DNA of 64,000 nucleotides, from positions 87,916,001 to 87,980,000 of the forward strand of contig OZ024745.1 of assembly GCA_964016885.1 (NCBI GenBank), read 5' to 3'. A program made the translations under genes and the position numbers. This stretch comes from Eledone cirrhosa (lineage: Eukaryota). This document shows, in pieces, positions 11,711 through 12,954 of this stretch. The notes below the pieces were generated by a model. That model was not told where the DNA came from and made no database searches. It saw only the letters and a program-made list of their open reading frames with translations. Numbering within the stretch: the first letter of the stretch is position 1; the number at the start of each line of letters is the position of its first letter.

Positions 11711-12115
11711 TATTAAAGGATGGGATCCTCACGGCTAAGACACATATAAGCAGCCGTATGCTCGATTAGGATTGACCAATCTCTCCGAGGCTCAAATATA
11801 TCTCTCTGAAATCTCAACCTATCAATCTTATAATTGAAAATAGTATGGGGTAATCATGGCTGAACCAATTTTGATTATATTTCTGATCTATTTGCGTTGA
11901 TATTGGATTAAACAATAACAGCACATGATTTATTGATAAAAGAGGAGAAAACTTTAGAGGTTTTGAATCAATTGAAAAGGTATCTGTAAACATTTTTACA
12001 CACGTATTTGTCATCCAGCGCCATTTGTTGACTCAATGGAACTTTCATCTATTTATATTAGAGAAAGAACCTGTATATATATATATAAGGCTCTGTGTTC
12101 TGTGGTTGGAAATAT

Positions 12116-12193
12116 CTGTCTGAAGAGCTGATTCTTTCCATTGGAAATTCTCTGAATTTCCAATCTTTTGATAAGCGAAACCGTCGGTCACAG
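12116..12193 (+). ncRNA. Type I hammerhead ribozyme (family A2)
   Basis: cugu CUGAAGA gcu...[uuggaaauuc/gaauuuccaa hairpin]...agc GAAA ccgucgg UC acag. Confidence 0.8.
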
Positions 12194-12575
12194 CACTAGA
12201 ACATGTATATTTAAATCGTATTTTAATTTATTTAAAAGATTGTTTAATGTTTACTTGTTCCGCTCATTTTTATAATTCTGGTATCTCAAATTAGTACCAT
12301 TGAATAACCACTATTATAGATACCATATATATTTCCGTGCGTACTTAGTACCCACTGGAATAATTATACCCTTTATTTGTATTCTCCTCCTATGTAGAAA
12401 AAAACATGTTGTATCGGCTGCTATTCCAAGTAACATGAAATTTCAACAAGTATAATTCCCGCTTTTTCTTAACGGCCTATTTATGTGTAGGTCACTTTAA
12501 CGGCCTGACCTCATACATTGGGCAGAAAGCAATATGTTTACTACCACAAGGCTCTGTGCCCTGTGGTTGGAAATA

Positions 12576-12655
12576 GCTGTCTGAAGAGCTGATTCTTTCC
12601 ATTGGAAATTCTCTGAATTTCCAATCTTTTGATAAGCGAAACCGTCGGTCACAGC
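12576..12655 (+). ncRNA. Type I hammerhead ribozyme (family A2)
   Basis: gcugu CUGAAGA gcu...agc GAAA ccgucgg UC acagc; complete core with GUC cleavage triplet. Confidence 0.85.
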
Positions 12656-12954
12656 ACTAGAACAGGTGAATATTTAAATCGTATTTTAATTTATTTAAAA
12701 AATTGTTTAATGTTTACTTGTTCCGCTCATTTATATATATATATATATATATATATATATATATATATATATATATATATATATATATATATATATATAT
12801 ATATATATATATATATATATATATATAATATATATATATATATATATATAATAATTATATATATATATATATATATATATATATATATATATATATATAT
12901 TTATATATATATATTATATATATTATATATTATATATATATATTATATATATAT

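Follow-up and report, generated by a model that had tools for sequence, protein, structure and literature searches.

The insertion at positions 12087-12732 of the window, by which we mean the whole 64,000-nucleotide stretch of the Eledone cirrhosa genome analysed here, belongs to a family that we interpret, with a probability of roughly 0.65, as a non-coding retroelement made of 457-488-nt units with a hammerhead ribozyme under selection, likely moving as an excised and re-ligated circular RNA through the action of a Penelope-like protein. The element is of an already known kind, the non-LTR retrozymes or non-autonomous Penelope-like elements: its tandem unit is non-coding, a few hundred base pairs long and provided with one type I hammerhead, and its insertions display the 5' truncation, partial tandems, inverted 5' arms, two internal 3' ends and microsatellite target of Penelope-like elements. 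A circular template is favoured about two to one over the alternatives considered below. The data set bears on why such elements keep a ribozyme and on the nature of the RNA that they use as template, and natural covariation among the copies defines a ribozyme fold that is missed by Rfam.

Organisation of the insertion and its hammerheads

The features of the insertion and of its neighbours are given in Table 1. The left junction is covered by one contig of runs X1 and X2, and the first fixed 3' end of the family is used by this insertion in its next repeat, at 12729-12732. No ORF of at least 150 aa was found at the locus, and no ORF with reverse transcriptase plus GIY-YIG in the unit. An earlier note on this DNA had proposed that 12190-12650 would be released as an exact monomer, and the cuts predicted after 12189 and 12650 do delimit 461 nt, so that excision of such a monomer from the locus is predicted. 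Folded as a circle, it is more stable than its shuffled versions (z -4.9, 25 shuffles), as were 8/8 monomers of the family folded in this way (z -2.6 to -7.2, 25 shuffles each). Over 185 nt, the two repeats of the insertion are separated by 5 substitutions and one indel of 2 nt. The copy is already decaying, and it has the rare anatomy of a possible source copy, one pair of exact cores a unit apart being present at 4/199 sampled sites.

Table 1. Coordinates of the features in the window.
Feature	Position	Strand	Remarks
478-subfamily insertion, inverted arm	3003..3241	-	ends at first fixed site
478-subfamily insertion, forward arm	3243..3905	+	ends at second fixed site
478-subfamily fragment	4517..4610	-	
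(TA)n, 5' side of insertion	12074..12086	.	
Element insertion	12087..12732	+	1.4 units, 5'-truncated, stops at the family's first fixed 3' end
Upstream type I hammerhead	12097..12206	+	CUGAAGA 12120-12126, GAAA 12177-12180, predicted cut after 12189
Predicted cut-to-cut monomer, 461 nt	12190..12650	+	hammerhead cut sites
UUUUUAUA, first fixed 3' end of family	12267..12274	+	+80 to +99 from cut
Hairpin RUUCUGG...CCAUUGAAY	12275..12305	+	directly 3' of first end site; also in sister families
Long covarying hairpin outside ribozyme	12327..12365	+	just 5' of second fixed end
U-rich second fixed 3' end of family	12372..12378	+	+180 to +209
Downstream type I hammerhead	12558..12668	+	core 12581-12587, GAAA 12638-12641, predicted cut after 12650
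Loop 1, GGAAA	12569..12573, also 12108-12112	+	predicted partner of loop 2 UUUCC
Loop 2, UUUCC	12596..12600, also 12135-12139	+	internal loop in two-part stem II
Distal stem II	12601..12625, also 12140-12164	+	11-bp hairpin with covarying pairs
Helix III, ACCGUCGGU	12641..12649, also 12180-12188	+	near-palindromic
(TA)n target, 3' junction	12733..12957	.	
433-nt inverted repeat family	12953-14476		unrelated; immediately right of (TA)n
Other-family type I hammerhead motifs	17001-17065, 33922-33981, 48739-48798, 54224-54298	+, -, -, -	
546/547-nt tandem family with inverted arm	18903-22091		same design: long stem II, hairpin after U-rich site
Penelope-like element, RT and C-terminal GIY-YIG region, nested inverted copies	22160-33450		region at 25247-28780
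Hammerheads in this Penelope-like element	29480-29608, 23457-23586	+, -	(TA)n junction present

The hairpin next to the first end site is a candidate binding site for the reverse transcriptase. At its ends, positions 12275 and 12305 are A and U in this copy and G and C in most others, a further compensatory pair that is also present in locus L004.

Both hammerheads of the 461-nt unit have the CUGANGA and GAAA boxes, an NUH triplet and three stems open at stem I, as in type I hammerheads, with an exact core and GUC as the triplet. The downstream one agrees with the common state of its subfamily. In the upstream one, stem I reads UCUGU, where a G-to-U change makes pair 5 a U.C mismatch; in the distal stem, UU stands in place of CC and 2 nt are deleted. 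Judging from its sequence, this ribozyme is weakened by these private changes. Of the two intact hammerheads 461 nt apart described earlier, the spacing and both cores therefore stand, and the intactness of the upstream stem I does not. Helix III is unstable as a hairpin (+0.4 kcal/mol) and stable as a two-strand duplex (-11.3 kcal/mol), which makes a dimeric hammerhead, working through this palindromic helix, the likely configuration.

The Rfam hammerhead model had no match in the window at the gathering score, nor at E <= 10 in positions 1-14000, probably because of the long stem II. Minimum-energy folds did not recover the hammerhead in any window copy, and in both window copies the cleavage-competent fold is 9-10 kcal/mol less favourable than the ensemble, a value that counts neither the pseudoknot nor the dimer. 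The structure accordingly rests on covariation.

The 478-bp units at 3.0-3.9 kb were correctly recognised in the earlier note as diverged homologs of the 461-bp unit (73.5% over 547 nt), with the switch of stem I from GCUAU/AUAGC to GCUGU/ACAGC and of the cleavage triplet from GUA to GUC. The same note regarded N7 as the only variable position of the core. N7 does differ (A in the 461 unit, U in the 478 unit), and so does pair 10.1-11.1, which is G-C in both 461-unit copies, whereas the 478 subfamilies have A.C or A.G and other subfamilies U.U. The CUGAUGA attributed to the 478-bp unit lies on the minus strand, in a core-intact hammerhead of the inverted arm (3085-3154) that has a 10-nt deletion in distal stem II, and is absent from the plus-strand hammerhead of the forward arm, where the core is broken (CUG-UGA at 3643-3648, one core base lost). 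Window positions 2500-2917, which adjoin the (TA)n of the 478 insertion, are presumably the 3' end of an RTE-type LINE.

Evidence for selection on the ribozyme in transposing lineages

An exact pattern of core and helix III has 1,618 matches in the 3.0-Gb genome against 0 for the reversed control, and the same pattern with a loop one base longer has 1,962 against 1, mostly in sister families. The family spans at least eight subfamilies; clustering on the non-ribozyme context gave ten groups of at least 3 copies, and natural cut-to-cut units measure 439-488 nt (27 units). Copies were taken from the first 100 places listed for each pattern, mostly on contigs C1 and C2, and thus form a non-random sample, with 250 hammerhead-anchored copies in a smaller set and 354 in a larger one; the latter left out 123 partial hits and 17 distinct unanchored regions, including the broken 478 copy of the window. 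Young sister families (L422-L451) have units of 478-485 nt, a 4-nt palindromic loop III with AU, CG or UA at its centre, and arrays in which at least nine units stand in tandem.

Trees were built from the flanking context only, leaving out the stems (192 leaves in the smaller set, 276/354 in the larger), and branches were classed as internal when at least 4 loci lay below them and as terminal when they led to one locus. In stems I, II, distal II and III, pairing was kept in 38 changes and broken in 8 on internal branches (38/46 kept), against 117 and 221 on terminal branches (117/338 kept; Fisher p = 8e-10). This contrast is still large, even though the helices were picked after viewing the sequences, the fuzzy anchoring is biased towards conserved copies, and reversals are overestimated by parsimony on a noisy tree. 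When the irregular pairs II.4-6 were added, the kept/broken counts were 45/16 internally and 135/238 terminally (p = 4e-8), pair II.1 being excluded from both versions of the count; the smaller set gave 23/10 and 92/152. For the catalytic core, 213 leaves were used that had been found by other means than a core pattern: its 11 sites had 2 internal and 53 terminal changes, compared with 401 and 1191 in the context (p = 4e-5), while the free positions N7, H17 and the loop III centre changed in a pattern like that of the context.

Among 40 copies hand-picked across subfamilies, both partners change in 14/36 named pairs; the covariation score reaches 0.211, compared with 0.138 when the copies are shuffled and 0.03-0.07 when the partners are slid. 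Hairpins outside the ribozyme covary as well (18 units). Across the 354 copies, pair I.2 is G-C in 168, A-U in 85 and U-A in 51, and pairs II.2 and II.3 covary as well. Pair 10.1-11.1 is paired in 134/354 copies, the remainder including U.U (129), A.G (57) and A.C (26) in a subfamily-dependent way, and some subfamilies have spread despite a mismatched 10.1-11.1 or a C.A at I.2.

Taken together, the sampled copies support selection on the hammerhead motif in the lineages that kept transposing, and not in the copy at 12087-12732. The single compensatory pair in two copies that had first been put forward as evidence of selection is not beyond chance, and the genome-wide sample, in which the covariation suggested as a check was tested, provides the support instead. 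Hammerheads in Penelope-type elements may be mere passengers, their role being stated as open in Craig et al., 2021 (PMC8557442); purifying selection on the catalytic residues in transposing lineages argues that the ribozyme of the present non-autonomous family is no such passenger. The same contrast bears on a spread of the family as a satellite at the DNA level, with the hammerhead a neutral relic and its covariation inherited. Some tandem arrays do exist, and local expansion could have lengthened the largest of them (see below). A satellite is nevertheless refuted for the family as a whole, and we regard it as extremely improbable, since core and stems are constrained on internal and not on terminal branches, and the dispersed copies combine fixed 3' ends with truncated 5' ends and inverted arms.

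Loop 1 GGAAA and loop 2 UUUCC can pair in 332-344 of 347 copies, but are invariant within the family. Sister families have GAGAA/UUCUC (6 copies) or GAAAAG/CUUUUC instead, and 13 copies of one family fall off the tested register. Because the loops are complementary and change in sister families, and one family does not fit, a loop 1-loop 2 pseudoknot is likely, not proven. Pseudoknotted hammerheads occur in prokaryotes. In the sister families, the central two bases of helix III are self-complementary in 32/40 copies.

Insertion ends and the nature of the template

The 3' ends of terminal segments are concentrated at +80-99 (137/215) and +180-209 (65/215) from the cut, so that 202/215 fall in two U-rich windows, and 191/215 run into (TA)n. 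By contrast, the 5' ends are scattered by truncation; partial tandems occur, and inverted arms are common, with both 3' ends facing outward. When 200 copies were selected by their first 30 bases after the cut and by nothing else, 3 had a 5' end within 2 nt of the cut, against 2.2 expected, and 197/200 crossed it. The best full-length hits had seemed to show 5' ends piling up at the cut, but this came from picking by length and was gone in the +1 to +30 sample.

This lack of an excess at the cut indicates that cleaved linear monomers are not the usual template. They might still serve if the reverse transcriptase jumped precisely from the 5' end of one monomer to the 3' end of the next, which would yield exact periods and mixed tandem pairs; such jumping would, however, leave stops and junction errors at the cut, where the observed ends are close to expectation, and it sits poorly with the near-uniform array described next. 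We consider it highly unlikely.

The largest array (28 units; G000:C1, about 156.425-156.438 Mb, L188 and L419) consists of 19 and 9 units on opposite strands, with a period of 456-457, and is a near-uniform member of the young 457-nt subfamily. Its two arms end in (TA)n, one at either fixed site, and its units have in common a variant that two other arrays lack; unit differences amount to 0.9 within arrays and 5.6 between arrays. As far as its sequence tells, the array has the anatomy of a single insertion, and its pattern is the trace that would be expected from rolling copying of one circle off both cut strands. It is possible that it arose instead from a long uniform transcript, from later local expansion or from an assembly effect.

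Repeats of one insertion have rare alleles in common in 11/32 tandem and 20/47 inverted pairs, against 6/79 controls. In 9/32 tandem pairs (45/79 in controls) the repeats disagree at no fewer than two recurrent variants, and in only 8/32 is the partner repeat at least as near as the nearest other locus. The 9/32 discordant pairs indicate that some insertions used mixed templates, which is not expected from one circle and counts against a circular template.

Such heterogeneous pairs, like the copies that cross the cut, would also follow if the template were an uncleaved linear multimer, the ribozyme being slow or protein-assisted and kept for another step, e.g. read-through trimming or a protein-bound fold. 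In an autonomous Penelope-like element (PAc / Poseidon), hammerhead mutants inserted normally in vitro, so that cleavage was unneeded; unprocessed RNA was the main template, and reads that end at the cut were absent (Frangieh et al., 2024, PMC11167929). Insertion of this kind thus predicts an absence of 5' ends at the cut just as a circle does. However, the 28-unit array would require transcripts left uncut through up to 19 ribozymes, a linear multimer alone does not remake exact-period tandems from copies that are mostly truncated, and no sites are more constrained than the catalytic residues. We therefore judge a linear multimer unlikely, and prefer the circle.

Under the circular reading, a genomic copy longer than one unit, such as that at 12087-12732, would be transcribed, and its two hammerheads would cut the transcript, probably as a dimer through helix III and aided by the predicted pairing of loops 1 and 2. 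By analogy with known retrozymes, a host ligase would close the monomer. A GIY-YIG Penelope-like protein, postulated from the ends observed, would then cut (TA)n and prime inside the RNA at one of the two U-rich sites, often on both strands, which would give the inverted arms. As the insertions show, copying passes the cut site and stops variably, sometimes yielding more than one unit, and the inserted copies decay afterwards.

Comparison with known retrozymes and Penelope-like elements

Circular RNAs of retrozymes have been reported in coral, mussel and axolotl, and circle-templated tandem insertion has been proposed (Cervera and de la Pena, 2020, PMC7229834). As described there and by Li et al., 2026 (10.64898/2026.07.22.740005), metazoan non-LTR retrozymes are, like the family studied here, low-GC non-coding repeats with one type I hammerhead per unit, organised as monomers, dimers and multimers, with a structured monomer and co-occurring Penelope-like elements. 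The unit here is somewhat longer than the 170-400 nt given in PMC7229834 and lies within the 51-972 bp of the 2026 survey. In contrast to those retrozymes, the present family consists mostly of dispersed truncations and has a two-part stem II of ~50 nt with a predicted Watson-Crick pairing of loops 1 and 2. The 2026 preprint ties such elements to Penelope-like termini and reports cleavage in vitro for 1/9 Xenopus retrozyme dimers (10.64898/2026.07.22.740005). Further papers in the retrozyme comparison are PMC6765202 and PMC9977147.

The element PAc / Poseidon, as presented in PMC11167929, resembles the family in having two internal start sites downstream of the hammerhead, an AT-rich target, extension of both strands and no ends at the cut; it differs in that no ORF is present here and that the sites are about 105 nt apart, not 30-40. 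EN+ Penelope-like elements, including the non-autonomous Chlamys/MRC1, likewise have 5' truncation, partial tandems, an inverted 5' copy, an optional tail and a microsatellite target according to Craig et al., 2021 (PMC8557442), whereas the element here, unlike them, encodes no protein.

Dimeric type I hammerheads with a short palindromic helix III are found in newts, axolotl and Penelope-like elements, and the axolotl HHR_Amex2 also has U.U at the base of helix II (PMC4209133, PMC7229834). Helix III here has three pairs and stem II another architecture than in the dimeric hammerheads of these two papers, and the covariation has here been split into lineage and post-insertion changes. Hammerhead families with compensatory changes had already been reported, and copying of more than one unit from circles proposed, in PMC4209133. 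In the literature searched, from which subscription papers were mostly absent, we found no paper centred on a selection test that sets lineage against private changes, or on a 5'-end test, in an animal retrozyme. Young near-identical arrays, with 457-nt and 483-nt units, are ready substrates for the published, unproven circular-template model.

A broader reading, which we offer tentatively and place somewhat below even odds, is that the superfamily preserves a fossil record in which a Penelope-like protein reverse-transcribed, by rolling circle, circular RNAs made by the ribozyme, combined with an undescribed hammerhead architecture and a portable priming-site hairpin. If so, the selected core, cDNAs that always read through the cut and twin-primed arrays of 13 kb from one event would belong together; the two-part stem II, the Watson-Crick pseudoknot, the free 10.1-11.1 and the dimer-forming helix III would constitute an architecture undescribed in the main texts of the papers compared, whose supplements may hold similar folds; and the conserved hairpin by the priming site would be a portable signal that makes a circular RNA an integration substrate.

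Penelope-like and other elements in the window

One endonuclease region of the window resembles GIY-YIG/HTH_animal clusters at 0.96-0.97, and pieces of the window's Penelope-like element recur elsewhere at 72-96% identity. Between the unit and the Penelope-like elements of the window there is no clear homology (best match 25 nt), none of these elements has termini in common with the family, and an autonomous partner was not found in the window or in the sampled loci among the matches listed. Two kinds of candidate partner were set aside: variants with a short stem II are mostly internal deletions of the same families, and ORFs beside copies belong to separate elements beyond the microsatellites. 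Four proteins of the window had no match in Pfam. ORFs at 39341-46389, with endonuclease and reverse transcriptase, presumably belong to an L1/Tx1-type LINE, and those at 56621-61330 read like the Rep/helicase of what we take to be a Helitron.

Two of the four hammerhead motifs of other families adjoin fragments of Penelope-like ORFs (15817-16929 and 34704-35315). The 546/547-nt family has UGAGAAU/AUUCUCA as its loop complement and a perfectly palindromic helix III, and its alternate units differ in the hammerhead region.
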